Shown piece after piece: positions 4,814-53,380 of a DNA stretch of 64,000 bases. Both the position numbers and the translations under genes were made by a program. Source of the stretch: a virus (lineage: Duplodnaviria; Heunggongvirae; Uroviricota; Caudoviricetes); IMG/VR virus record IMGVR_UViG_3300028666_000001, positions 1 to 64,000 of that record; one strand, given 5' to 3'. Under the pieces are notes generated by a model, which had not been told where the DNA came from, did no database searches, and saw nothing but the letters and a program-made list of their open reading frames with translations. Position 1 is the stretch's first letter. The number at the start of each line of letters is the position of its first letter.

Positions 4814-5275
4814 ATGACATTTGATCCAGATTTAGTTCGAGTTGACCTAATGCTAGTAAAGCGTAAGCTGTATATAAGGCATCCTGAAGGTTCACCAGAA
4901 CGTAAGGCATTTTTGCTTGCTTCTAAACTTTCAGAGCTTACTCATTTACAGAAGCTTGTTGATCCTTTAGTCACGGAAATGATTTTTAATGAATATAATA
5001 GTCAATTAAAAAATGAAGTTATTAATATTATATTGAGTATTGGTCTTGGAGCTTGCTTATCTGTGATGCTGTATGCATACCATCAATTGCATCCTACTAA
5101 TCTTTGGCTATGTTTCTATTTGACTCCAATAATCACAGGAACTTTATTTGCTTCCAGTCATGTATTCCACATGATTGATCGTTGGAAACATTTTCAACCC
5201 TTTAAAGAAGACTATGAAACTCTTTGTAAACAGATTGAGAAACTAACAAATGAAATAAAGGATTTTGCGAAATGA
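4814..5275 (+). CDS. membrane protein
   Basis: two to three predicted TM segments in C-terminal half. Confidence 0.4.
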   Translation: MTFDPDLVRVDLMLVKRKLYIRHPEGSPERKAFLLASKLSELTHLQKLVDPLVTEMIFNEYNSQLKNEVINIILSIGLGACLSVMLYAYHQLHPTNLWLCFYLTPIITGTLFASSHVFHMIDRWKHFQPFKEDYETLCKQIEKLTNEIKDFAK

Positions 5276-6474
5276 GCATTCAAGCATTTCATGATGCTAT
5301 AGTTAATCTGCAGCCAGTGGATCTTTTCCAATATGAGGATGAGATCCCTGAGTTCAAGCTGCTCCATGGCTGTGAACAAAGTCCTGAACATCATGCAGAG
5401 GGAAATGTTCTAATCCATTGTAACATGGCAGGTCAAATAGTTCTTCAGCTTATAGAGGCTGAGAACATTAAAGAAGAATATAAAGTCCTTCTTTATATTG
5501 CCACCATCCTACATGATATTGGTAAACCCTGCACGAGTGTCTTCAATGCAAAGAAAAATAAGATCACTGCATATGGGCATGATGATGCGGGAGTTCCCAT
5601 TGCTAATGAATTTCTTAAGAAGTATTTTCCTGAGTTCCATTATAAGCAGCGTGAATTAGTCTGTAGACTGATTGAACAACACATGCATCCTCGTATGTGG
5701 ATCAAAGATGGTACAGCTACAGTCATAAAGCTAAAGATGCTATCTCTCACTGTGAACACAAAGCTTCTTTATGTTCTATCACAAGCTGATACCCTGGGGC
5801 GAACAGCTAAAGATATGAATGCAAGTATGTCCTTGCTTGAATTGTTTAAACAAAATTGTGAAGACTTAGGCATATGGGATAGACCCTATCGTGTCCCTCT
5901 TGCTACTCATTTGGATAATGCTTCATACTCTCTTGCTAGATGGAATATTCTTATGCATAAGGCCCCAGAAGATTTGGATACTTACGATGCTGCTGTTGAG
6001 ATTATGGTCCAACCTCCTAAACCTAATTTCCAATTGATGGTCTTGATTGGGGCTCCAGGCTCAGGTAAGTCTACAGTTCGTGAACAGTTGGTTGCAAAGT
6101 ATCCTGGTATTAAGGTTATCAGCATGGATGAAAGACGTAAAGAGCTTACGGGTGATGCTAACAATCAGTCACGTAACAATGAAGTGTTTGGTTGGCAGCA
6201 AAAAGAGTTGAGGAAAGCCATGGAAGCGAGACAGAATACTATTGTAGATGCCACAAATACTAGTCGTAAATTGCGTAGAGTTCTTTGGGATATAGCTCGT
6301 GAGAATGGGGCTCTTTGTAGTGCTATCTATTTCGATTTGCCTTTAGCTGTGTTGCTTGAGCGTAATGCATCCAGGGAGAAGAGAGTTCCAGATAGTGTTG
6401 TGGAACGCTTCTATAATACAATGCAATCTGTATGTCCCTGGGAGGCAGACTTAGTTCAAGTTATCGATAAGTAA
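5272..6474 (+). CDS. pnk: HD-domain phosphohydrolase fused to polynucleotide 5'-kinase (Pnk) domain
   Basis: N-term H..HD (ILHDIGKP); C-term VLIGAPGSGKST..DATNTSRKLRRVLWDIARENG aligns with T4 Pnk kinase ILTIGCPGSGKST..SDTNLNPERR. Confidence 0.8.
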   Translation: MSIQAFHDAIVNLQPVDLFQYEDEIPEFKLLHGCEQSPEHHAEGNVLIHCNMAGQIVLQLIEAENIKEEYKVLLYIATILHDIGKPCTSVFNAKKNKITAYGHDDAGVPIANEFLKKYFPEFHYKQRELVCRLIEQHMHPRMWIKDGTATVIKLKMLSLTVNTKLLYVLSQADTLGRTAKDMNASMSLLELFKQNCEDLGIWDRPYRVPLATHLDNASYSLARWNILMHKAPEDLDTYDAAVEIMVQPPKPNFQLMVLIGAPGSGKSTVREQLVAKYPGIKVISMDERRKELTGDANNQSRNNEVFGWQQKELRKAMEARQNTIVDATNTSRKLRRVLWDIARENGALCSAIYFDLPLAVLLERNASREKRVPDSVVERFYNTMQSVCPWEADLVQVIDK

Positions 6475-10122: not shown

Positions 10123-10332
10123 ATGGCTAATATTTGTCAGCATTGTGGTTATTCATCTCTTGCACATAGGCAGGTAACTGTTTATTCATCTCTTGTAATA
10201 CAAGCTGCAATTCATAGAGATATCCAGGAGTGGTCTGGTAATGCTAATAGACATTTAGCTGATAGACCATGTGATAATTACAAGAGAGATAATCTTTTGT
10301 ATTTAGAAAGCTTGGTAACTAACAATGGCTGA
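10123..10332 (+). CDS. DNLxYLE-tail small Zn-knuckle protein (family member)
   Basis: CQHCG..H Cys/His cluster; C-terminal DNLLYLESL. Confidence 0.6.
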   Translation: MANICQHCGYSSLAHRQVTVYSSLVIQAAIHRDIQEWSGNANRHLADRPCDNYKRDNLLYLESLVTNNG

Positions 10333-10861: not shown

Positions 10862-11191
10862 GTGCCGACGTTTGAAGGATGGTTGCTCAGTCCAATAGAG
10901 AAGACATACAATGAAAGGGAATCATCATCTATGAGCAGCAAGGCACGTAAACGAGAGATCATCCTTACTTACTTAAGAAATATAGCTGGTGCATTGATAT
11001 CATTACCTATCTCATTAGTTATTGTAACTATTTTAATTTTAGCAGCCCTATTGCTTTTACCTTTGATTTGGGGTATAATGATATTGTGGTGGGTGAATGG
11101 CTTTAAGCAAACTCTGCTTGCTAAACAATTAGAACAGGAGATGGACCAATTGGAATGTGAATGTGTAGATTGGACCCATAAACATGCGTAG
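10862..11191 (+). CDS. membrane protein
   Basis: two TM helices. Confidence 0.4.
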   Translation: MPTFEGWLLSPIEKTYNERESSSMSSKARKREIILTYLRNIAGALISLPISLVIVTILILAALLLLPLIWGIMILWWVNGFKQTLLAKQLEQEMDQLECECVDWTHKHA

Positions 11192-11369
11192 GTTATTAGA
11201 AGAACAAAACTATTTTTGTCAGTGTGGTCATGTGAAGCGTCAGCATGAAGGTCCTGAATATCAATATGAGTGTAAGACATGGATCTATCTCACTGGTATT
11301 TGTCTATGCAATGAATTCAAGCTAGATAACCTTCGTTACTTGGAGGCATTAGTTGACAAGAATGGATGA
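11184..11369 (+). CDS. DNLxYLE-tail small Zn-knuckle protein
   Basis: CQCGHVKRQH..CLC; tail DNLRYLEAL. Confidence 0.65.
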   Translation: MRRLLEEQNYFCQCGHVKRQHEGPEYQYECKTWIYLTGICLCNEFKLDNLRYLEALVDKNG

Positions 11370-24428: not shown

Positions 24429-25025
24429 ATGAGTAAAGTATGTGTTGGATGCAAAAAAGATAATACTCAGATCCAATTTGGTTCAGATAAACGAACTTTA
24501 TCTGGTTTAAGATCTCGTTGTAATGAATGTCGTAAAACAGAATCATCTCCAGAAGATGTGAAAGCTCGTGGACAACGTTGGTATATTAAAAATAGAAGTA
24601 AAGTATTGAAAAATGTTCAGGCTTATAAAAAGGCTCATATAGATTGGTGGAGAAAATACACTAATAATTATGATAAAATTAATGCTAAAGAAAGTATTAT
24701 TTATAAAATTAAACGAAATCTTCGTGCTCGTTTACGTGCAGCATTAAAACATAATTTAAAACAAGGATCAGCAGTTCAAGAGCTTGGTTGTTCAGTAGAT
24801 TATTTTAGGAAGTATTTAGAATCTAAATTCTATGGAAATATGTCATGGGATACTTATGGGCTTGGAAAAGATAAATGGCAAATAGATCATATTGTTCCTA
24901 TTAAGAGTTTTGATTTTACAAATAAAGAACAATTTAAAAAAGCTGTTCATTATACTAATCTTCAACCTTTATGGTATATTGATCATGTACTTAAAACCAA
25001 AGAAGATAGGAGGAGTTATAAATGA
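24429..25025 (+). CDS. HNH-type endonuclease, paralog 2 of 3
   Basis: CVGCKK..CNECR zinc site, basic region, WQIDHIVPIKSFDF..HYTNLQPLW. Confidence 0.6.
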   Translation: MSKVCVGCKKDNTQIQFGSDKRTLSGLRSRCNECRKTESSPEDVKARGQRWYIKNRSKVLKNVQAYKKAHIDWWRKYTNNYDKINAKESIIYKIKRNLRARLRAALKHNLKQGSAVQELGCSVDYFRKYLESKFYGNMSWDTYGLGKDKWQIDHIVPIKSFDFTNKEQFKKAVHYTNLQPLWYIDHVLKTKEDRRSYK

Positions 25026-25555
25026 GAGTGATGATGTTGGATTTTGATGGAGTATTGAACAGTAAGCAGCACTTCCTTGCTACCAAAGGCTTTAAGGTTC
25101 CAGGAGCTGATACGCTTAATGATGCAGATTTGTTTCGCATGAAGTCTGATGTCAATGCTAATAACATGTGGGTATTACGCTTTATCATGGATCAAGTACC
25201 AGACCTGAAGATTGTTATCTCCTCAGCTTGGAGAAGCTTCTATAGCCTTGAATCCTTTAAAGAGCTATTCAAGATCTATAAGCTAGATGGTGACAGGATC
25301 ATTGGAGTAACACCAAAGAAATTCAGCTCTGAGCGTATCCATGAGATTCACATGTGGTTGGATGACTATGTAGAACTTCACCACAAGCAGCCAGATTGGG
25401 TTGCCTTGGACGATCATGCTATCTTTAACCTAGGAGATCCAGAGAAGGTTAGAGAGTTCCTAACAGACAGCTGGGTGGGTTTAACGATGCAGGATGCTTT
25501 TAAAATTGTTCAGCACTTTCATCCTGAGTATCAACCTCCTGTGATACTGATATGA
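25022..25555 (+). CDS. HAD-superfamily phosphatase-like protein
   Basis: motif I MLDFDGVL, motif II VISSAW, motif IV ALDDH. Confidence 0.5.
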   Translation: MRVMMLDFDGVLNSKQHFLATKGFKVPGADTLNDADLFRMKSDVNANNMWVLRFIMDQVPDLKIVISSAWRSFYSLESFKELFKIYKLDGDRIIGVTPKKFSSERIHEIHMWLDDYVELHHKQPDWVALDDHAIFNLGDPEKVREFLTDSWVGLTMQDAFKIVQHFHPEYQPPVILI

Positions 25556-25882: not shown

Positions 25883-26440
25883 ATGAGATACTTTACAAGC
25901 GATACACACTTTGGTCATGGGAACATTATTAAGTACTGCACACGTCCATTTAAAGATGCAGGTGAGATGGATCGTGCTATCATTGCTAATTGGAATGAAA
26001 CGGTGCAGCCTGATGATATTGTCTACCATCTTGGGGATGTAGCCTTTACTTCACCAGATAGAGCGAAACATATCCTTAGTTGCCTGAATGGGCATAAGAT
26101 ACTGATCCTGGGAAACCATGATAGGTCAGGTCATAAGATGGCAGAGTGGGGCTTTGCTGAAGTGTACCAGTCCAAACAGATTGAGCTGGAAGGTGGTATA
26201 ATCGCTAACCTTTCTCACTATCCATATCGTGGTGATAAGAATGATCCTTATCATAAAGTAAAGTTTGACACTAAGAATCTAGATGATGATGGGCGGCTAC
26301 TTATCTGTGGTCACGTTCATACTGCTTGGAAATCTATTCCAGGTAAGTATAAGAATCATATGATCAATGTGGGTCAGGATCAATGGGCCTTTAGACCTAT
26401 ATCTGAGACTCAGCTTCTAGAGTATCTAAAAACACTTTAA
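25883..26440 (+). CDS. calcineurin-like metallophosphoesterase
   Basis: SDTHFGH, GDVAF (GD), ILGNHD, GHVH motifs. Confidence 0.75.
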   Translation: MRYFTSDTHFGHGNIIKYCTRPFKDAGEMDRAIIANWNETVQPDDIVYHLGDVAFTSPDRAKHILSCLNGHKILILGNHDRSGHKMAEWGFAEVYQSKQIELEGGIIANLSHYPYRGDKNDPYHKVKFDTKNLDDDGRLLICGHVHTAWKSIPGKYKNHMINVGQDQWAFRPISETQLLEYLKTL

Positions 26441-26628
26441 GTCAAGGATTAGAGCGTACAGTCGTAAGTGCCAATACTCCTAGGACTATTGGACCAAAGG
26501 GGCCAGCTCTACAGGAATAATTGTAGGATGAAACTCAATTGGGTGAGTTAGGTGAGTACCCTGGTGCGGTCATTGTTCTAGAAGATGACGATCAGGTTAG
26601 GGGCCGAAACAATTCTCTACCTATGCCC

Positions 26629-26657
26629 TTGACAAATATAATGAAAGGATGTATACT
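26629..26657 (+). promoter_or_regulatory. sigma70-type promoter TTGACA-N17-TATACT (leaderless ATG 26663, ClpX-ZBD-like gene)
   Basis: exact hexamers. Confidence 0.5.
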
Positions 26658-26662
26658 ATAAC

Positions 26663-26851
26663 ATGGTTTGTTTATGTACAGGCTGTGCTCCAAAGCAATC
26701 ATTTAACTCCGCTGAGTGTATGTGGTGTCAGAAGGGATTGCAAGGTATGGGAAAACTTATTAGCCCTAATGGAGCCAGGGTCTGTCAAGACTGTATAAAG
26801 AAAGCTGCGGAGGCTCTTGAGAAGGCAATCAAGGGGGAAAGCAATGGATGA
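26663..26851 (+). CDS. ClpX N-terminal zinc-binding-domain-like protein (orphan ZBD)
   Basis: CMWCQKGLQGMGKLISPNGARVCQDC = CxxC-x18-CxxC, same spacing and GK..KLI..ICDEC pattern as E. coli ClpX [26 protein letters not shown]; leaderless from promoter 26629. Confidence 0.55.
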   Translation: MVCLCTGCAPKQSFNSAECMWCQKGLQGMGKLISPNGARVCQDCIKKAAEALEKAIKGESNG

Positions 26852-27074
26852 TGTGGCAACACCTATTGAACGAATCTGTAGACATTGTGATCATAATGAG
26901 GTTCGTCATTTACCAGCAGATGGTAATATGTTTCATTGTGGTTATGTAGCTACATTTTTTACTGAGACTAATTTGTTAGAGTTTTGCCCTTGTTATAAGT
27001 TTGTGCCAACAGATAATTTAGAGTATGTGGAGTTAAAGCTTAAAGAAAAAGAGGATGAAGTACTTCATTTATGA
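26817..27074 (+). CDS. DNLxYLE-tail small Zn-knuckle protein
   Basis: CRHCDHNEVRH..CPC; tail DNLEYVELK; overlaps ClpX-ZBD-like gene end. Confidence 0.6.
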   Translation: MRRQSRGKAMDDVATPIERICRHCDHNEVRHLPADGNMFHCGYVATFFTETNLLEFCPCYKFVPTDNLEYVELKLKEKEDEVLHL

Positions 27075-27245
27075 AACTATTATTTTGTAAGGTTGGATTG
27101 CATTGGCGTATGAAGATAGTTGAATCACTCTTTGTAGATGTTGTGAGTGGTAAGACGGTTTATAAAGCCATTTGTCCATGCAATGAATATTGGATGATTG
27201 ATACTCTATTAGGTTTTCCATTTTTTAAAGTTCCATTAAACTACG

Positions 27246-27593
27246 ATGAACCCCATGATTAATACCTGGGGTGAATTGTTTACAGCGATTAAGACATGGT
27301 GGAATACAGAGCTTAAATTTGAAACTAAGAAGCTACCTGAACCTTCTGAATATAAAGATATTTTAAGACCTGTTCAGAACATTTCTAGTGGAGAATGGAA
27401 CAGAATACAAAGAGCTGCTTTAAATAAATTAGCTGACCAGTATTTTTCTCACTTACGGGATCGACTAAAGCATGGTGAGATATTGAGTAATGAAGAGCAA
27501 ATCCGATTGAGGAATTATACTCTCCACCAGGATATTGGGCGTTTTCCAAATACATTACCTGAACCTCCTAAGAATATGGAGAGCAATGAATAG
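27246..27593 (+). CDS. hypothetical protein
   Basis: 115 aa ORF. Confidence 0.35.
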   Translation: MNPMINTWGELFTAIKTWWNTELKFETKKLPEPSEYKDILRPVQNISSGEWNRIQRAALNKLADQYFSHLRDRLKHGEILSNEEQIRLRNYTLHQDIGRFPNTLPEPPKNMESNE

Positions 27594-27877: not shown

Positions 27878-28261
27878 ATGAGCTGGGATCAAGAGTATCA
27901 TGTAGAATCATATTTAGAATTGCTTATTGAACTTACGGGCAAACACCCAGAAGAAGTTCTTGAACATTATCTATTGTTGCAGAAGCTCAGCGTGACAAAG
28001 AAAGAAGAAGTAGTGTTAGATGATGGATTCTTTGGTCCAGTCAAAGGCACTAAGATTACACTCTCTGATGGTCGAGTATATATACCTAAGCTCGTCGAGA
28101 AGTTCAATGAGAATGGTAATCACGGTATTGATACCTATAAATATAAATTGGAAAATGAACCATCATCTGTTATATACATAGGTTTAGATTCAGCTGATCC
28201 TGATGTCGATAGTTATACAGTGCCAGAAGGATATGGACAAGACGATGAGGTTGGTTGCTAA
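27878..28261 (+). CDS. hypothetical protein
   Basis: 127 aa ORF, ATGA-coupled. Confidence 0.35.
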   Translation: MSWDQEYHVESYLELLIELTGKHPEEVLEHYLLLQKLSVTKKEEVVLDDGFFGPVKGTKITLSDGRVYIPKLVEKFNENGNHGIDTYKYKLENEPSSVIYIGLDSADPDVDSYTVPEGYGQDDEVGC

Positions 28262-28488
28262 TGGCCTGGGCTAAAAAAATAGTTCGAAGAGTAATACCTG
28301 ATGTCCGAAGGGTTGGACCTTATAAAAGCTTTTGCCGTAAATGCTCTTGTCATCATCCATATGATAGTGAGGTAAGTGGGATGCTTAAGGGCTGTGTATG
28401 CAATCCTGCAGGTCGTAGAGGTGAATGTGGCTTATATGTCCCAACAGATAACCTTGAGTATTTAGAATTCTTAAATGAAAGTCTTTGA
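28255..28488 (+). CDS. DNLxYLE-tail small Zn-knuckle protein
   Basis: CRKCSCHH..CVC; tail DNLEYLEFL. Confidence 0.6.
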   Translation: MLMAWAKKIVRRVIPDVRRVGPYKSFCRKCSCHHPYDSEVSGMLKGCVCNPAGRRGECGLYVPTDNLEYLEFLNESL

Positions 28489-29979: not shown

Positions 29980-30122
29980 TAATCACTTTGGTTTGTGAGT
30001 GTGATCATCCTAACTGGATGCATACCTATGATATGTGGTGTAACTTCTGTCGTTGCAATATCTTTAAGGTTGACAATCTCAAGTCTTTAGAGTACACTTA
30101 TGGATCTACTGTATCCTTGTAA
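29976..30122 (+). CDS. DNLxYLE-tail family member (48 aa, not in track)
   Basis: read from sequence: CECDHPNWMH..CNFCRC..VDNLKSLEYT. Confidence 0.45.
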   Translation: MIITLVCECDHPNWMHTYDMWCNFCRCNIFKVDNLKSLEYTYGSTVSL

Positions 30123-30282
30123 GACGTGTGGACATGCCTACGAAGATCATCTCGTAGGATTAAGCTGTGCCTTTTGCTGGGCAGATGCAGGGTTTAATAG
30201 ATCATCTGTTATCCATAATATGTGTAAAAGGTTCATAGGGGATAACCTGAAGTACTTAGAGGAGAAACATGCTGAGTCCTGA
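30100..30282 (+). CDS. DNLxYLE-tail small Zn-knuckle protein
   Basis: CKTCGHAYEDH..CAFC; tail DNLKYLEEK. Confidence 0.65.
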   Translation: MDLLYPCKTCGHAYEDHLVGLSCAFCWADAGFNRSSVIHNMCKRFIGDNLKYLEEKHAES

Positions 30283-33498: not shown

Positions 33499-33787
33499 TG
33501 GATGATCTTGTTTGGGGAACCATTAAATATAAAGGTCCACCTCTTCAATATGAGTGGTTTCATTTTTGTTCTGATGGCACATTGATTTGGAATTGTCTAT
33601 GGTCTAATTGTGAGAACTGTAAAAAACTAGAGGAATATTACAATGAGCAAGCCTAAAGTAAAAGATCGCTCAGGCTTTAGCCATGATTGCCCATTCTGTG
33701 GGTATCACATTGTAGTCTGTTGTTCCCCTGAGTATTTGAAATGTATCTATTGCTGTAGACGTTGGAAATTAGAAAAGGATGAGAACA

Positions 33788-34504
33788 ATGAGCAAACCCC
33801 AGAAAGATAGTCTTGGTGATAGGATGAAAGGGTATGAAAACGTCACTAGGACGTTTTTAACTGGTAGGATGCCTTGTATCATTAGGATTGATGGAAAAGC
33901 CTTCCACACCTTAACTAAGGGCCTTAAGAAGCCATTTGATAAGGACTTTGCAGATGCTATGTTAGCTACAACCAGAGATCTATGTGATGAGATTCAGGGA
34001 GCTGCTTTAGCCTATTGGCAATCAGATGAGATATCGATTCTTTTAATTGATTATTTAAGGTTAACTTCTCAGTCATGGTTTGATAAGAATATTCAGAAGA
34101 TGGTATCAGTTAGTGCCAGCATTGCGACAGCTAGTTTCAATAGTTGGTTCCAATTCCCCGATACCTGCAACTCAAGAGCTACTTTTGATAGTAGGGTCTT
34201 TACTTTACCTAGAGAAGAGGTTTGTAACTATTTTTTATGGAGACAACAAGATGCTACTAGAAATAGTATCAATTCTGTTGGTCAAGCTTATTTCTCCCAT
34301 AAGCAATTACATGGTAAAAATACAGATCAAGTTCAAGATATGCTTTTTAAAGAGAAAGGGATCAATTGGAACGATCTACCAGTTATTGAGAAAAGGGGTG
34401 CTTGTATAGTGAAGCAGGAAGGTGGTTGGATAGTAGACAGAGAAATCCCTATCTTTAGTCAAGATAGAGAATATGTAAATAAGTTTGTTAATATAGGAGA
34501 TTAA
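33788..34504 (+). CDS. Thg1-like protein (tRNA-His guanylyltransferase family, 3'-5' polymerase; tRNA 5'-end repair)
   Basis: CIIRIDGKAFHTL / KPFDKDFADAM / YWQSDEISILL / FLWRQQDA align with Thg1 VVVRLDGRNFHRF / KPNDSRALQLM / YGQSDEYSFVF / YLSWRQADC. Confidence 0.85.
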   Translation: MSKPQKDSLGDRMKGYENVTRTFLTGRMPCIIRIDGKAFHTLTKGLKKPFDKDFADAMLATTRDLCDEIQGAALAYWQSDEISILLIDYLRLTSQSWFDKNIQKMVSVSASIATASFNSWFQFPDTCNSRATFDSRVFTLPREEVCNYFLWRQQDATRNSINSVGQAYFSHKQLHGKNTDQVQDMLFKEKGINWNDLPVIEKRGACIVKQEGGWIVDREIPIFSQDREYVNKFVNIGD

Positions 34505-34677: not shown

Positions 34678-35148
34678 ATGAAGTCTAAAGCAAAAGAATT
34701 ATACGATAAACAGTATTATCAAAGAACTAAAGAGCAACGTAAACAGCATAGAGATTTACATCGTGCTGAGCATCTTATTTATGATAAAGAGCGATATGTT
34801 AGATTGAAGAATGAGTTTGCTAAAAGAGCTAGAACATTAGAGGTTCGTTTTAAATCGGGAGTTTCAAAAGCTAAGAAGATGAAGCGAGAATGGCAAATAT
34901 CTTTTGTTGAATATAAGCAATTAATTAAATTGGGTTGCTATTATTGTGGTGTGGACTTGACAGATACAGCAGGAACAAATTTGGATAGGGTAGATAATAA
35001 GAAAGGCTATACACTGAATAATGTTTTACCTGCATGTGGCCCCTGTAATGAAAGTAGATTTGATCATTTCACAGTGCCAGAGTGGGTTGCTATGATTCGA
35101 GCTTTGCAGGTCTATAGACATAACAAGGAGAATGGCTATGTCCGTTGA
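34678..35148 (+). CDS. HNH homing-endonuclease-like protein
   Basis: CYYCGVDL..NLDRVDNKKGYTLNNVLPACGPCNESR canonical HNH. Confidence 0.65.
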   Translation: MKSKAKELYDKQYYQRTKEQRKQHRDLHRAEHLIYDKERYVRLKNEFAKRARTLEVRFKSGVSKAKKMKREWQISFVEYKQLIKLGCYYCGVDLTDTAGTNLDRVDNKKGYTLNNVLPACGPCNESRFDHFTVPEWVAMIRALQVYRHNKENGYVR

Positions 35149-36178
35149 AAGAAAGTTAGCATCAATTCAAAAAGTCTTAGATGTCCAGCCTATTCCTGGG
35201 GCTGATGCTATTGAATGTCTTACTGTTCTTGGTTGGAAGGTTGTTAGCAAGAAAGGTGAATTCAAGGTTGGAGACTTGGTTGTTTACTTTGAAGTTGATT
35301 CGATTCTCAAAGAATCTCCTGATGTTGAGTTCCTGCGTAAGTCAGGCTTTCGTATCAAAACGATACGATTACGAGGTCAAGTTAGTCAGGGTCTTTGTTT
35401 GCCACTATCCATCTTGGCAGGTGAGTCTGAGTTGCCACATGAGCCACATGCTGAGGGTGATGATGTCACTGAGCTGCTTGGAGTAGTTAAGTATGAACCA
35501 TATGTGCCAGCTCAGTTGGCTGGTCTTGCCAAAGGTAACTTCCCAGAGTTCTTGCATAAGACAGATGAGACTCGTATCCAGGCTGTGCCAGCAGTATTAT
35601 ACAGACACCAAAACAAAAAGTTTTATGTGACAGAGAAGGTTGACGGGTCCAGCATGACTGTCTATTTCAGACGCAATGAGCACTTCGCTGATGGAGAGTT
35701 TGGCGTTTGCTCTCGTAATATAGATATGAAAGAAGAAGGTGGTACATCGTTCTGGAAAGTAGCTAGAGAGCTTGACCTTGAGAACAAGCTGCGTAGCCTT
35801 AATCGTAACATTGCGCTGCAGGGTGAGTTGCTTGGTCCAGGTGTCCAGGGCAATAAGTATAAGCTAGAGAAACTTGGCTACTATGTGTTCAACGTTTTTG
35901 ATATTGATACTGGTCTTCATTTTAATTATGATGACTTTGTTAAGATGATAATTTATTTGCAATTGCAGCCTGTTCCTTTGGTTGATGATTCATTTATATT
36001 ACCTAACACTATAGATGAATTGGTCCAATACTCTAAAGGTAAGAGTGCAATGAATAAAGATTCTCATCGTGAGGGTATTGTGTTGCGTCCTTTGATTGGT
36101 GAGTATGATGAAGATCTGCGTGGTCGCTTAAGTTTCAAGTGCATTAACCCAGATTTCCTGTTAAAATATGATGCGTGA
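35138..36178 (+). CDS. ATP-dependent RNA ligase (Rnl2/Rnl5 superfamily) with N-terminal tRNA-binding-type OB domain
   Basis: motif I TEKVDGSS, motif IV REGIVLRPL, motif V LSFKCINPDF; N-term IPGADAIECLTVLG..GDLVVYFEVDSIL resembles Myf/EMAP-II tRNA-binding fold. Confidence 0.75.
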   Translation: MSVERKLASIQKVLDVQPIPGADAIECLTVLGWKVVSKKGEFKVGDLVVYFEVDSILKESPDVEFLRKSGFRIKTIRLRGQVSQGLCLPLSILAGESELPHEPHAEGDDVTELLGVVKYEPYVPAQLAGLAKGNFPEFLHKTDETRIQAVPAVLYRHQNKKFYVTEKVDGSSMTVYFRRNEHFADGEFGVCSRNIDMKEEGGTSFWKVARELDLENKLRSLNRNIALQGELLGPGVQGNKYKLEKLGYYVFNVFDIDTGLHFNYDDFVKMIIYLQLQPVPLVDDSFILPNTIDELVQYSKGKSAMNKDSHREGIVLRPLIGEYDEDLRGRLSFKCINPDFLLKYDA

Positions 36179-36992: not shown

Positions 36993-37170
36993 GTTTATTT
37001 GGTGGAGATAAGACACCTGAAGTAGAAAAGCCTGATATTTGGGAAGAGGTTGGAGAGGATACAGATATCTATCGTACACGTACTCCTGAAGGTTGGTTAA
37101 TTATGGATAATCAATATCATAGAGGCGGGTTAACATATGTGCCAGATGCAGATCATAAATGGAGGCTAGG

Positions 37171-37821
37171 ATGAACATAATTCCCACAGTCATAGAAAAG
37201 AATCCAGGTGCAGGTAGCATGGTGTCGTATGATCTGTTGTCACGTCTCATGCAGGATAGGATCTTGTTTGTTGGTGGTAATCATGGAGCTATCAGCCTTG
37301 ATGATGCTAACATTCTAATTGCCCAGCTTCTGTATCTGGAGTCTATTGATCCAGGCAAGCTGATTCAGATGTATATCAATTCTCCAGGTGGAGAAGTTTC
37401 CGCTGGATTGGCTATTCTTGATACAATGCGCCACATTACAAGTCCAATTCAAACTATCTGCATGGGTATGGCTATGAGCTTTGGAGCTGTGCTGCTTAGC
37501 TCAGGAGCTAAAGGCAAACGTTTTGCATTGCCTAATGCTCGTATCATGATCCATCAACCATTGATCAGCGGTGGTGGCATATCTGGTCAGGCTACAGATA
37601 TTGCTATTGAAGCTAAAGAAATGGTTCATTGCAAAGAGTCTCTTACTAAAATCATGGCTAAAAACTGTGGTCAAGAATATGAGAAGGTACTTGCTGATTG
37701 TGAACGCAATTTCTACATGTCAGCCGAGGAAGCAAAAGCGTATGGTTTGATTGATTCGGTTATTTACCCAGCAGAAGAAGGTAAGTCAAAGACCAAAGGT
37801 TATTGGGACGACGGTAAATAA
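37171..37821 (+). CDS. clpP: ClpP-family serine peptidase (S14), copy 1
   Basis: INSPGGEV, GMAMSFGAVLLSSGAKGKRFALPNARIMIHQP closely parallels E. coli ClpP [32 protein letters not shown]; GGAGG RBS. Confidence 0.8.
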   Translation: MNIIPTVIEKNPGAGSMVSYDLLSRLMQDRILFVGGNHGAISLDDANILIAQLLYLESIDPGKLIQMYINSPGGEVSAGLAILDTMRHITSPIQTICMGMAMSFGAVLLSSGAKGKRFALPNARIMIHQPLISGGGISGQATDIAIEAKEMVHCKESLTKIMAKNCGQEYEKVLADCERNFYMSAEEAKAYGLIDSVIYPAEEGKSKTKGYWDDGK

Positions 37822-37824
37822 GTA

Positions 37825-37853
37825 TTGACAGGACGTTGAATATCTGTTATAAT
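37825..37853 (+). promoter_or_regulatory. perfect consensus sigma70 promoter TTGACA-N17-TATAAT driving an ORF-free region
   Basis: exact consensus hexamers and spacing. Confidence 0.6.
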
Positions 37854-37859
37854 TAATTA

Positions 37860-38125
37860 GGTGGGTTGAGGCCCAATAAAAGAATAAGCCTGGATGCTCA
37901 TAAGAGTAGCCTAACGCATCCCATCAAATATGGAAACTAGGGGTTCAGCGGGATCTCTCCCTAGGAGTACGAAGTAAAGACGAGTCCCGCACAATTTAAG
38001 ATCATAGTGACACGAACGGTGACGTGGTAAAAAACATAATCAGACGTTAGCCAGTTCGATTCTGGGGTGTCCTCTGGGAGAGTGAAGTCTGATTCAGCTG
38101 GTTCAAGTCCAGCATATGATCGCAA
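37860..38125 (+). ncRNA. candidate structured RNA / tRNA-like element downstream of consensus promoter
   Basis: no ORF >35 aa for about 370 nt; hairpins GCTGG-TTCAAGT-CCAGC (38097-38113) and CCAG-TTCGATT-CTGG (38051-38065) are T-arm-like; 7-bp helix GATCATA(38000-06)/TATGATC(38115-21); hairpin CTAGGG..CCCTAG at 37928-37956. Confidence 0.3.
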
Positions 38126-38592
38126 ATTTGTGAGTGGATTAAATGAGTGACATGAGGTTCCAATTGGATCATATATAATCCAAGATGCCTACACTTCTCA
38201 CAAAGCCCTTTAAAGGAGATGCAAATGAAAATAATTATTGTTACAACCGTTGTTATTTTTTGGTATGCAGTAGCTGTTTGGTTAACCTATAAGATTGCTC
38301 AGTGGTTTGAGCGTAACTCATAAGGAGAGTAGAATGCAATTAGAATGTGAAACGTTTCTATTAGCTGCAGGTAGTACATACAATGAAGTAGTTAAAAGAT
38401 CAGGTCGTTTACGGATTTCTACAAGTGGAGCAATTAAGGCTTGTTCAGTTATTGGAATAACTGAAGGATTTCCTCTATTTATAAATGAATCCACTAATTA
38501 TTTAGATGTAAAAAAAGGAAGTATACTTCGTATTATAAATAGAGATGTGAGTGTTAATGTTTATTTAAGTTATGAGGGGAAAGGAAAATAAT

Positions 38593-43520: not shown

Positions 43521-43720
43521 GAAAAATGGAATGTGATGATTGTGGTTGCATAAAGAGCCTTCACAAAAAAACATCTGATAGGAAACCTTATTGTTATGGA
43601 TGTTGGGAAATCTTGCGTGATAATAGAACAGAATATATTAAAAGTGGTACATCTGCGTGGCATATTTTTAAATTAAATAATTTGAAGTGGCTTGAACAGC
43701 AGTATGAAAAGACCTTGTAA
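43517..43720 (+). CDS. DNLxYLE-tail small Zn-knuckle protein
   Basis: CDDCGCIKSLH..CYGC; tail NNLKWLEQQ. Confidence 0.6.
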   Translation: MRKMECDDCGCIKSLHKKTSDRKPYCYGCWEILRDNRTEYIKSGTSAWHIFKLNNLKWLEQQYEKTL

Positions 43721-43883
43721 ATGTGGCTGTAGCTTTGAGGATCATGTAGAATTAAGATTTGAAACTCCAAAACCATTTATCTATTATTGTAGGAATTGTG
43801 GAAGTAAACCTCCAAGTTGGTGTTACAATTATGTACCAATTGACAATTTAGAATACCTAGAGTGGTTACTACGTGATGAATAA
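43692..43883 (+). CDS. DNLxYLE-tail small Zn-knuckle protein
   Basis: CKCGCSFEDH..CRNC; tail DNLEYLEWL. Confidence 0.6.
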   Translation: MNSSMKRPCKCGCSFEDHVELRFETPKPFIYYCRNCGSKPPSWCYNYVPIDNLEYLEWLLRDE

Positions 43884-49928: not shown

Positions 49929-50531
49929 ATGAAAAAACGAACGCCTAAAGTATTTTTACGTGATACTAATGAGAACGTAGTGTTCTTCTGGAAAAAGTAT
50001 TTTAAACCTTTTCCTGAAGTAGAGATTTCCAGTGGTGATATCTTTGAGATTAAAGCTGATGCTATAGTCTCACCCGCCAATAGCTTTGGTATGATGAGTG
50101 GTGGGATTGATTTGATTTATAGAGATAAATTTGGACTAGATGTAGAAAAGCTTGTGCAGAAGAATATTGATCTCCATTACTATGGTGAGTTGCCAGTTGG
50201 TCAAGCGTTGAGTGTTCCTATGAAAGGCCAGGATTACAATTATTTGATTGTGGCTCCTACCATGCGTCTTCCAATGAGTGTAGATAATACCCTCCATCCT
50301 TATGCTGCCTTTCGTGCTACCCTTTTAAGAGCTAAAGATAAAGAAATTGAGTCACTTGTGTGCCCAGGACTTGGAACGGGTGCTGGTATAGCATGTCCAG
50401 AAATGGTAGCCCGTCAAATGTTTATTGCTTATATCAATGTTGTTCTAAATATAAGTCCTACCAATTATGATCATCTATTAAAGCAAATGGGTTGGATGTT
50501 ACGTTGTTCTCAGGATAAAAGAGTTCTCTAA
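49929..50531 (+). CDS. macro-domain protein (ADP-ribose binding/hydrolase)
   Basis: IKADAIVSPANSFGMMSGGIDLIY and CPGLGTGAGI match macro-domain signature. Confidence 0.6.
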   Translation: MKKRTPKVFLRDTNENVVFFWKKYFKPFPEVEISSGDIFEIKADAIVSPANSFGMMSGGIDLIYRDKFGLDVEKLVQKNIDLHYYGELPVGQALSVPMKGQDYNYLIVAPTMRLPMSVDNTLHPYAAFRATLLRAKDKEIESLVCPGLGTGAGIACPEMVARQMFIAYINVVLNISPTNYDHLLKQMGWMLRCSQDKRVL

Positions 50532-51007: not shown

Positions 51008-51218
51008 TCCAAGAGAGTACTGTCGTACTTGTAGCCATGCTGATTGGTTGCACGTTAAAACATATTATTATGCTTGTGGTAGAAAACCACGTTCCTATCA
51101 TGAGGCACAATATGCCTCTGAGATTTGTCCCTGTAAAGAATTTTTGCCTGAAGATAATTTAGCTTACTTAGAGCAGTTAGAGAAAAGGAGTCACACTAAT
51201 GAAACCCCACAATCATGA
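50973..51218 (+). CDS. DNLxYLE-tail small Zn-knuckle protein
   Basis: CRTCSHADWLH..CPC; tail DNLAYLEQL. Confidence 0.6.
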   Translation: MKKALINHKSNDPREYCRTCSHADWLHVKTYYYACGRKPRSYHEAQYASEICPCKEFLPEDNLAYLEQLEKRSHTNETPQS

Positions 51219-51834
51219 GGATGAAGAATCTCAAGGTACACCATTTAATCCATATAATGAATTTGAAATTGATACCTATAAGGCTCTTCTTAAAGATAGG
51301 ATCATTCTTTATAATGGTGATATCGATAAAAGTGTAATTGAACGAATTGTTCTACCACTCACCACTTTGGCACAGAAAAGTGTAAAGCCAATAAAGCTCC
51401 TGATCAATTCTCCAGGTGGGTCTGTAACAGATGGGCAAATGGTTGTAGATTCTATCTTAACTTCTAAAGCACCAGTTATCACCGTTGCACTTGGAGAAGC
51501 TATGAGTGCAGCCTTTGATATATTTCTTGCTGGAGATAGACGCATTGTGTACCCAAATACAGTCCTCATGATGCACTCAGGCTCATCTAGGTTTGAATCT
51601 CAGACTTTACCTCAGATCAATGTAGAGGCTGATCTTCATCGTAGGTACTTTGAGAGATGGTCTGCTTGGTATGCCTCCCGCACTAAAGTTGATCAGAAGG
51701 CTTGGCATGACATGCTTAGTACTGGATTAAATTATTATTATTTTCCAGAGGAAGCATTAAAGGTTGGTTTGGTTCATGAGATCATTAAACCAGTAAGTAA
51801 GAATGTTTCTGGAAGAAAACGATTTAAATTATAA
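51199..51834 (+). CDS. ClpP-fold serine peptidase (S14), divergent copy 2
   Basis: LINSPGGSV, GEAMSAAFDIFLAGDRRIVYPNTVLMMHSGSS parallels ClpP Ser/His regions; AAAAGGAG RBS. Confidence 0.65.
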   Translation: MKPHNHEDEESQGTPFNPYNEFEIDTYKALLKDRIILYNGDIDKSVIERIVLPLTTLAQKSVKPIKLLINSPGGSVTDGQMVVDSILTSKAPVITVALGEAMSAAFDIFLAGDRRIVYPNTVLMMHSGSSRFESQTLPQINVEADLHRRYFERWSAWYASRTKVDQKAWHDMLSTGLNYYYFPEEALKVGLVHEIIKPVSKNVSGRKRFKL

Positions 51835-53091: not shown

Positions 53092-53241
53092 ATGAAACGT
53101 AGTCCTAAAGAATTAAAAATCAAAATATGTTGGTGTGGTCACTCCGCTGAATCTCATCCTAGATACTTAGAGTATACAGGATATATTTGCGTAGATTGTG
53201 ACAAGTGCAATGACTATGGCCCAGCGACTGTTAATAGATAA
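53092..53241 (+). CDS. divergent family relative (CWCGHSAESH..PRYLEY then extra Cys cluster), 49 aa
   Basis: read from sequence. Confidence 0.3.
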   Translation: MKRSPKELKIKICWCGHSAESHPRYLEYTGYICVDCDKCNDYGPATVNR

Positions 53242-53380
53242 AAAGTTTCCATGTAAATGTGGTCATGATAAAGATGAGCATCATCTTCATTCCAGAGCAT
53301 GTTGGTTTTGTGCTCTCTATGGTGAATGGTGTGAGAATTTTGTTGGAGACAATTTAAAATACTTGGAAGGTAAAATTTAA
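53198..53380 (+). CDS. DNLxYLE-tail small Zn-knuckle protein
   Basis: CKCGHDKDEHH..CWFC; tail DNLKYLEGK. Confidence 0.65.
   Translation: MTSAMTMAQRLLIDKKFPCKCGHDKDEHHLHSRACWFCALYGEWCENFVGDNLKYLEGKI

Follow-up and report, generated by a model that had tools for sequence, protein, structure and literature searches.

We found that a 64,000-nucleotide stretch of an uncultured Caudoviricetes virus (positions 1 to 64,000 of the IMG/VR record IMGVR_UViG_3300028666_000001; hereafter the window) encodes a free-standing 62-residue protein that is, on well-supported profile evidence, a homologue of the zinc-binding domain (ZBD) of ClpX without the AAA+ module of that unfoldase. We tentatively propose that this phage ZBD serves as a decoy or heterodimerising cap for the N-domain of the host ClpX, a reading to which we assign a probability of about 45%. 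The gene and its parts lie in the window as follows.

26629-26657, + strand: putative sigma-70-type promoter, with the -35 hexamer TTGACA at 26629-34, a 17-nucleotide spacer and the -10 hexamer TATACT at 26652-57
26663-26851, + strand: gene of the ZBD protein, ATG to TGA with the stop included, 62 residues, ClpX-type ZBD
26663-26716, + strand: N-terminal extension peculiar to the family (residues 1-18), in which C3, C5 and C8 (CxCxxC) and F14 are invariant
26708-26830, + strand: ZBD core, residues 16-56, with the knuckle C19/C22, a hairpin, and C41/C44 opening the C-terminal helix

The open reading frame (ORF) translates to MVCLCTGCAPKQSFNSAECMWCQKGLQGMGKLISPNGARVCQDCIKKAAEALEKAIKGESNG. Its cysteines are spaced C19-x2-C22-x18-C41-x2-C44, identical to the spacing in E. 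coli ClpX, and the sequence-only reading, which had quoted residues 19-52 and announced a 62-residue product with a CxxC-x18-CxxC pattern of the E. coli kind, is thus borne out by ORF 26663-26851. Such a four-cysteine spacing is not diagnostic by itself, because the + strand of the window holds 25 CxxC-x10-30-CxxC motifs; this phage is Cys-rich and full of small zinc-finger genes. The bare CxxC-x18-CxxC pattern occurs three times in the six-frame translation of the window, against none in 30 shuffles. What raises the ZBD finding above chance are the profile matches, not the spacing of the motif.

The protein matches Pfam PF06689 (zf-C4_ClpX) over profile positions 2-38 of 39 with an E-value of 5.1e-5 and a sub-gathering score of 23.5 bits, and 8 of 10 family members match this profile individually at E <= 0.1, 5.1e-5 being the best value. 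ClpX equivalog models of NCBIfam align at their N-terminal positions only, namely 4-46 (NF003745, E 5.7e-5) and 8-48, and the 62-residue protein reaches 22 bits against a cutoff of 359 when judged as a whole ClpX (NF003745/TIGR00382). The chain ends at residue 62, and the claim that it lacks the AAA+ module therefore stands. In profile-profile comparison (hhalign), the family profile aligned with a set of ZBDs over 41 ungapped columns with a probability of 97.2% and E 4.5e-11. Because most ZBDs of this first set had been picked by the family profile, we repeated the comparison against a set restricted to the PDB ZBDs of E. coli and Listeria; this gave 93.6%, P 2e-7 and a score of 37.4, and none of 40 column-shuffled controls exceeded 2.3% or a score of 13.8. 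The homology to the ClpX ZBD that the sequence-only reading had postulated is thereby upheld.

Database searches with the family point to the same domain. Searched exhaustively with hmmsearch, 1.8 billion representatives yielded, in addition to the family, three tandem proteins of four ZBDs (P0011, P0012 and P0014, E 2e-4 to 7e-4), each of them built from four CSFCGK...ICDxC repeats. A search of 5.8 billion sequences recovered P0026, a 65-residue NCBI protein with a precomputed PF06689 assignment, at E 7.7e-4, with APNGARICNEC in common. Genuine ClpX proteins of Oscillospiraceae, found in a scan of GTDB genomes, read ...GPGARICDQC, within the longer stretch ...RRMIQGPGARICDQCV..., and the GAR(V/I)C signature of the family thus lies within natural ClpX variation. 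By sequence, the top PDB match is ClpX. An AF2 monomer model computed from a 17-sequence alignment (three input sequences gave an unusable pLDDT of 44) predicts a helix at 42-60 and bridge residues 18 and 25 with a mean pLDDT of 77.8, and ClpX structures take Foldseek ranks 1 and 3 (9a5x_A and 2ds5_A) at a non-significant E of ~1, which together lend weak structural support to a ClpX-type fold. From its homology, the protein would be expected to adopt a treble-clef Cys4 fold with an amphipathic helix after it, to bind zinc and to dimerise.

Single family members also show weak, in all cases non-significant, matches to DUF4428, DZR_2, L24e and TFIIB-like BFVD models, and the C-terminal helix is basic and Lys-rich, as might suit a small nucleic-acid-binding zinc ribbon that regulates transcription or translation of the neighbouring early genes. 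We consider such a role very unlikely: throughout, the ClpX ZBD matches best, no other match is significant, and the neighbouring genes are not conserved among family members.

The family comprises ~21 homologues of 59-67 residues, collected with word-indexed and exhaustive searches, all of them from metagenome or Logan assemblies and without informative annotation; their genomic settings are arrays of small same-strand genes, which are typical of phages. All 16 full-length aligned members share seven invariant cysteines (the N-terminal CxCxxC plus C19, C22, C41 and C44), and F14 is likewise invariant in them. Compared with a 79%-identical homologue, the codons of the gene differ synonymously at 12 positions and non-synonymously at 13, with no cysteine affected, and we conclude from these sequence comparisons that the 62-residue ORF is a genuine, conserved gene. 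A recent 5' fragment or pseudogene of clpX was also considered and rejected, as the family is diverged, under purifying selection and equipped with a conserved N-terminal extension of its own.

This CxCxxC extension is lacking in ClpX ZBDs and in the standalone cellular ZBD P0026. Its three extra cysteines do not make up a canonical Cys4 site; weak matches of the protein to RING-, PHD- and LIM-type domains hint at a second metal site. Degenerate DNA patterns detected no cellular member of the CxCxxC family in 185,579 GTDB species genomes, but they did recover genuine ClpX genes and one more family member, L123. No related locus was found in IMG/VR or GTDB genomes with alignment A1, and isolated phages yielded no DNA or protein relative; the window has none among them. 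As far as sampled, the CxCxxC family thus appears to be phage-only. A small phage protein on two further IMG/VR contigs, ...CHCHETCSWCTEPVLNSSLRETNDGARICRACW... (L121 2923-3129 and L124 1930-2136), joins a CxC to a ZBD-like CxxC-x18-CxxC plus GARIC; it matches the family profile weakly (E 7e-3) and may be a second, independent phage variant of the ZBD-like type.

In the mechanism that we propose, the free ZBD would imitate the ClpX platform on which adaptors and N-domain-dependent substrates dock; in E. coli, SspB, RssB, lambda O and MuA are among the ligands of this platform. Either by soaking up such adaptors and substrates or by pairing with ClpX N-domains through the dimer interface of helix and hairpin, the phage domain would silence the part of ClpXP degradation that is host-directed and depends on the N-domain, while ClpX would stay free to serve pore-recognised substrates and phage ClpP. 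The net effect would be a re-programmed host ClpX, with phage proteins protected and/or ClpX redirected to the phage ClpP. The 62-residue protein is probably highly expressed. Degradation of lambda O requires the ClpX ZBD. An isolated ZBD supplied in trans inhibits RssB-mediated breakdown of sigma-S by ClpXP in vitro (PMC7226468). At the sequence level, the phage family retains hydrophobic residues at the corresponding surface: F16 and I46 of E. coli ClpX, which mark the hydrophobic region binding lambda O, TF, SspB and RssB (PMC7804408), have their counterparts in W/F21 and A/V/L/I51, hydrophobic in 16 of 16 members. L52, on the amphipathic helix, is invariant in these 16.

Two ClpP genes lie in the same window, neither of which the sequence-only reading had mentioned, just as it had left out the invariant CxCxxC.

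37159-37821, + strand: ClpP paralogue 1, 220 residues, cellular-type and full-length, Pfam CLP_protease E 1.8e-68
51199-51834, + strand: ClpP paralogue 2, 211 residues, divergent, Pfam CLP_protease E 6.4e-30, under the NCBIfam cutoffs

Both phage paralogues have the catalytic Ser and His, with Asn at the position of the catalytic Asp, according to alignments with solved ClpPs, and both lie outside any obvious virion module. In this Asn they resemble Listeria ClpP1, whose activity is known only from a ClpP1/P2 hetero-complex. Paralogue 1 aligns over its full length with the ClpPs of Neisseria and Staphylococcus. A role of the two as head-maturation proteases was rejected, since paralogue 1 exceeds the cellular cutoff (257.7 bits on NCBIfam NF001368, cutoff 249), whereas its score with the head-maturation model is much smaller (74 bits, cutoff 120).

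The presence of two ClpP genes in the same phage makes the decoy idea more credible, and it is from co-occurrence only that we infer a functional link between these proteases and the ZBD. A second instance is the 151-kb relative IMGVR_UViG_3300020123_000589, which carries a ZBD-family member (38% identical) together with a ClpP (87% identical). Jumbo phages are thought to hijack host Clp systems with a ClpP or ClpS of their own (PMC7824862).

The same two paralogues would also suit a 'split ClpX', in which the ZBD acts in trans as N-domain or adaptor of an N-domain-less phage unfoldase, encoded elsewhere in the 192-kb genome, that works with the phage ClpPs. Some jumbo phages do encode ClpX or ClpA (PMC7824862), and ClpX-like AAA+ ORFs adjoin a ClpP on the viral contig L135. 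However, a ClpX hidden Markov model and a Walker-A scan detected no Clp/AAA+ unfoldase in the ~82 kb of the 192-kb genome that were examined (the window plus 8.7 kb upstream and 9.7 kb downstream); we know of no tether, other than ZBD-ZBD pairing, that would hold a free ZBD to the ClpX ring, and other phage-type contigs carry family members without a ClpP in the 12 kb examined (L006). We therefore regard a split ClpX as distinctly unlikely, while noting that the ~110 kb of genome outside the inspected part give it room.

The domain could, alternatively, serve as a general-purpose dimeric zinc scaffold that has been turned to a target outside the Clp system, for instance as a takeover factor for sigma or RNA polymerase, its likeness to ClpX reflecting ancestry only. 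CsfB, a treble-clef dimer that resembles the ClpX N-terminal domain and has an unrelated function (PMC5890618), is a precedent that also speaks against our proposal. Neofunctionalisation is suggested by the added CxCxxC, which is invariant, and by the low identity to ClpX; the gene sits among dozens of small zinc-finger genes under host-type promoters, and cellular genomes carry ZBD modules in many architectures other than ClpX. Yet the phage family, unlike CsfB, has significant sequence-profile homology to ClpX ZBDs, it retains hydrophobic residues at the positions of the F16/I46 cargo patch, and the phage encodes two ClpPs; a scaffold without Clp function thus seems to us unlikely.

Several further points weigh against the decoy proposal. 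The zf-C4_ClpX score of 23.5 bits falls short of the Pfam gathering score of 27, and identity to ClpX ZBDs is ~24%. The seven-cysteine layout is unlike that of ClpX, so that the surface, and indeed the metal sites, may by now serve another purpose. Pore-recognised degrons, such as a C-terminal Ala-Ala, need no ZBD, and a decoy would leave that branch untouched. The ~110 kb of genome outside the examined stretch could encode an unfoldase, co-occurrence with ClpP is documented in two genomes only, and the family member of L006 sits on another contig, which bears an integrase and shows no ClpP over the 12 kb examined.

Existing gene models obscure the domain. A start upstream of 26663 is excluded by an in-frame TGA at 26642-44, but JGI calls of 43 residues begin at the internal Met20 (L001 4806-4937 and L002 2495-2626, equivalent to 26720-26851 of the window), and clustered database entries likewise start at this residue (P0004 with 43 residues, P0006, P0010, P0013 and P0025). 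We reject the 43-residue model: residues 1-19 are conserved in the protein, with C3, C5, C8 and F14 invariant, and some members have no Met at position 20, so that the Met20 models are truncations. They lose the CxCxxC and the zinc ligand C19, an annotation artefact that hides the domain, and probably arise from a leaderless or short-leader start that confuses gene callers.

The putative promoter at 26629 matches the consensus at 11 of 12 positions, which makes it the joint best, with two others, in the 14 kb scanned, and only five nucleotides (ATAAC) separate its -10 hexamer from the ATG. From this promoter-ATG distance, leaderless expression of the ZBD gene, as the sequence-only reading had claimed, appears plausible. 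The closest relative (L004/L005) retains the hexamers, the 17-nucleotide spacing and the five-nucleotide distance to the ATG, while its spacer sequence has diverged. Similar promoters recur on the + strand of the window, 13 of them near-consensus and ~10 with the exact sequence TTGACA-N17-TATACT.

4659, 6660, 7354, 8162, 14292, 19859, 26629, 28974 and 34643, also 37825 and 59021, + strand: -35 starts of near-consensus promoters

At 7 of the 13, an ATG five or six nucleotides past the -10 hexamer opens an ORF of 42-156 residues, against a background of 5.6% (binomial P ~2e-6). The same design is found in the relatives L003, L008 and L009, and leaderless early mRNAs thus look like a habit of this clade; the pattern suggests a regulon of leaderless early transcripts. 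We assume from gene content that the ZBD gene belongs to the early block.

Other details weaken the leaderless reading. Counted from the -10 hexamer, the A of the start codon falls at position 6, and transcription most often begins one nucleotide later; 11-13 nucleotides upstream there is a purine run (AAGGA or AGAGG), and in two of the seven promoter cases an in-frame ATG with a Shine-Dalgarno sequence follows. Furthermore, the more distant members L003, L006 and L008 have an ordinary Shine-Dalgarno sequence before the gene. The promoter that abuts the ATG, its retention in L004/L005 and the pattern at 7 of 13 promoters speak for a leaderless mRNA, but leaderless expression would be specific to this lineage rather than a property of the family.

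The 222-bp intergenic stretch (26441-26628) that separates the metallophosphoesterase gene from the ZBD promoter has no counterpart in the closest relative; there, the promoter and the end of the upstream gene overlap (L004 246-259). At the equivalent position of L003, an uncalled ORF of ~60 residues, encoding a small hydrophobic protein, directly follows a consensus promoter of its own. RNA structure in the stretch 26441-26628 gave no signal (z 0.36), and Rfam yielded no match over the whole window. Downstream of the promoter at 37825 (TTGACA-N17-TATAAT) follow ~450 nucleotides without a convincing ORF (37825-38290), which contain the T-arm-like hairpins CCAGTTCGATTCTGG and GCTGGTTCAAGTCCAGC at about 38050-38115. 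A tRNA search of 37825-38290 with ARAGORN found none at default settings and weak tRNA-like calls at lowered thresholds, with a fold z of ~0.

The ZBD gene overlaps its downstream neighbour.

26844-27074, + strand: gene of a 76-residue Cys/His-rich protein with a DNLEYVE tail, ending ...VPTDNLEYVELKLKEKEDEVLHL; called by JGI with the same start

Its ATG at 26844 (ATGGATGA) precedes the ZBD stop codon (TGA, 26849-51), an 8-nucleotide overlap, and its Shine-Dalgarno sequence GGGGGA (26833-26838, in a purine run at 26831-41) lies inside the ZBD gene. In L004/L005, the ZBD homologue is followed only by the remnant ATGGATGAATGA and then by a homologue of 27071-27262 of the window, and in other relatives unrelated genes stand downstream. 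The translational coupling that had been proposed from the window thus has its basis in a real stop/start overlap, but the arrangement is not conserved, and the DNLxYLE gene, missing after the homologue in L004/L005, is no obligate partner of the ZBD.

The tail itself is widespread in this phage. The window (10123-53380) contains 30 occurrences of the motif DN[LIVM]x[YHSFW][LIVM]E, all of them on the + strand, and 806 kb of bacterial loci contain none. The motif almost always stands 3-14 residues from the stop of small ORFs of 36-163 residues, as in the following examples.

10123-10332, + strand: tail-motif ORF
11184-11369, + strand: tail-motif ORF
28261-28488, + strand: tail-motif ORF
30100-30282, + strand: tail-motif ORF
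43704-43883, + strand: tail-motif ORF
53210-53380, + strand: tail-motif ORF

Most tail proteins share the pattern PCxCGHxxxxH ... CxC..F..DNLxYLE, probably a zinc finger with a helix; a few others lack Cys and have the tail only. The motif is also present in L003, L004, L123, L125, L126, L140 and L143, and we did not find it in the other ClpP-bearing jumbo contigs examined. The DNLxYLE proteins had no match in Pfam, PHROG or PDB, and the motif string was not found in the literature searched. We interpret the set, from its sequences, as a massive paralogous expansion that seems confined to this phage clade.

All these elements could be combined into one 'Clp takeover kit', in which the free ZBD would be the specificity element and capture host ClpX jointly with the two Ser-His-Asn ClpPs, the C-terminal DNLxYLE tail of 30 or more small proteins would be a docking peptide or anti-degron that is read by the ZBD as a phage-private adaptor code for ClpXP, and another metal site, possibly between subunits, would arise from the three-cysteine knuckle. 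We give this combination hardly any credence.

The source contig of 192,099 bp (ENA ERZ27245386 k141_900479) has its ends inside the window, which means that the assembly is circularly permuted, as would fit a complete genome of ~192 kb. In the part upstream of the window, this genome encodes a MoxR-like AAA_5 ATPase with a DUF2201/VWA protein as a pair, a dCMP deaminase and an SLT lysozyme (L140, L143). Its set of RNA- and tRNA-repair genes is unusually rich and includes a T4 Rnl1-type ligase, an HD-plus-polynucleotide-kinase (Pnkp-like) protein, a HAD_SAK phosphatase and the metallophosphoesterase; the repair and modification set also comprises a Thg1-like tRNA-His guanylyltransferase, a PHA02142/Rnl-type ligase and a Macro domain.

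1286-2416, 5272-6474, 25022-25555, 25883-26440, 33779-34504, 35132-36178 and 49929-50531: RNA-repair and modification genes, jointly

Just beyond the window (L140, 18440 onward) lies the gene of a protein of >2000 residues with a weak match to 2',5' RNA ligases.

ClpXP governs the stability of phage proteins for replication and transposition (lambda O and MuA) and of stress sigma factors. It also governs that of some antitoxins that trigger abortive-infection defences (e.g. CmdTAC). If our proposal is true, a natural copy of the docking domain would represent a new and simple strategy in phage biology, a competitive decoy that hits only the adaptor- and N-domain-dependent branch of proteolysis. 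With its 62 residues and a clear in-vitro assay, the protein could furthermore become a handy tool for dissecting ZBD-dependent degradation, and two Asn-triad ClpPs without a visible unfoldase raise the idea of hybrid proteases composed of phage ClpP and host ClpX.

Among known systems, the N-domain of ClpX itself (PF06689; 1OVX, 2DS5-8) is the closest: it shares CxxC-x18-CxxC, C-x-(F/W)-C-x-K, KL(I/V), (V/I)C-x-x-C(I/V) and a C-terminal amphipathic helix with the phage protein, which differs in having neither linker nor AAA+ module, an identity of ~24%, the added CxCxxC and an encoding that is, as far as sampled, by phages only. The ZBD domain is thus already known, and the phage-only, seven-cysteine, free-standing family is new. 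Bacterial standalone and tandem ZBDs (P0026; P0011, P0012, P0014) likewise occur outside ClpX, and P0026 shares PNGARIC-x-x-C and a similar size, but all of these are cellular and without the CxCxxC extension; to our knowledge, none of the standalone or tandem ZBD proteins has a described function. In the literature searched, no natural free ZBD inhibitor, phage-encoded or standalone, is described. The isolated E. coli ZBD acting in trans is likewise free of the ATPase and inhibits RssB-mediated degradation competitively, which is the activity proposed here, but it was made in the laboratory from the domain of the host itself (PMC7226468). CsfB (Gin), an anti-sigma factor of B. subtilis, is also a small standalone treble-clef zinc protein and forms a dimer like that of the ClpX N-terminal domain; it binds sigma-G and sigma-E, and its authors doubt a homology to ClpX, whereas the phage family has significant profile similarity (PMC5890618).

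As regards phage factors, a survey of jumbo phages mentions ClpP, ClpS, ClpA and ClpX, and no orphan ZBD (PMC7824862). These ClpS and ClpP proteins, like PinA, Gp4.5 and Gp53, resemble the ZBD protein in being small, phage-encoded and suited to redirect or block host ATP-dependent proteolysis, and none of them copies the substrate-docking domain of the unfoldase itself. T4 PinA and T7 Gp4.5 are Lon inhibitors and SPO1 Gp53 is a modulator of ClpC. The phage countermeasures to host AAA+ proteases that are known to us are unrelated small inhibitors, borrowed adaptors or protease subunits.

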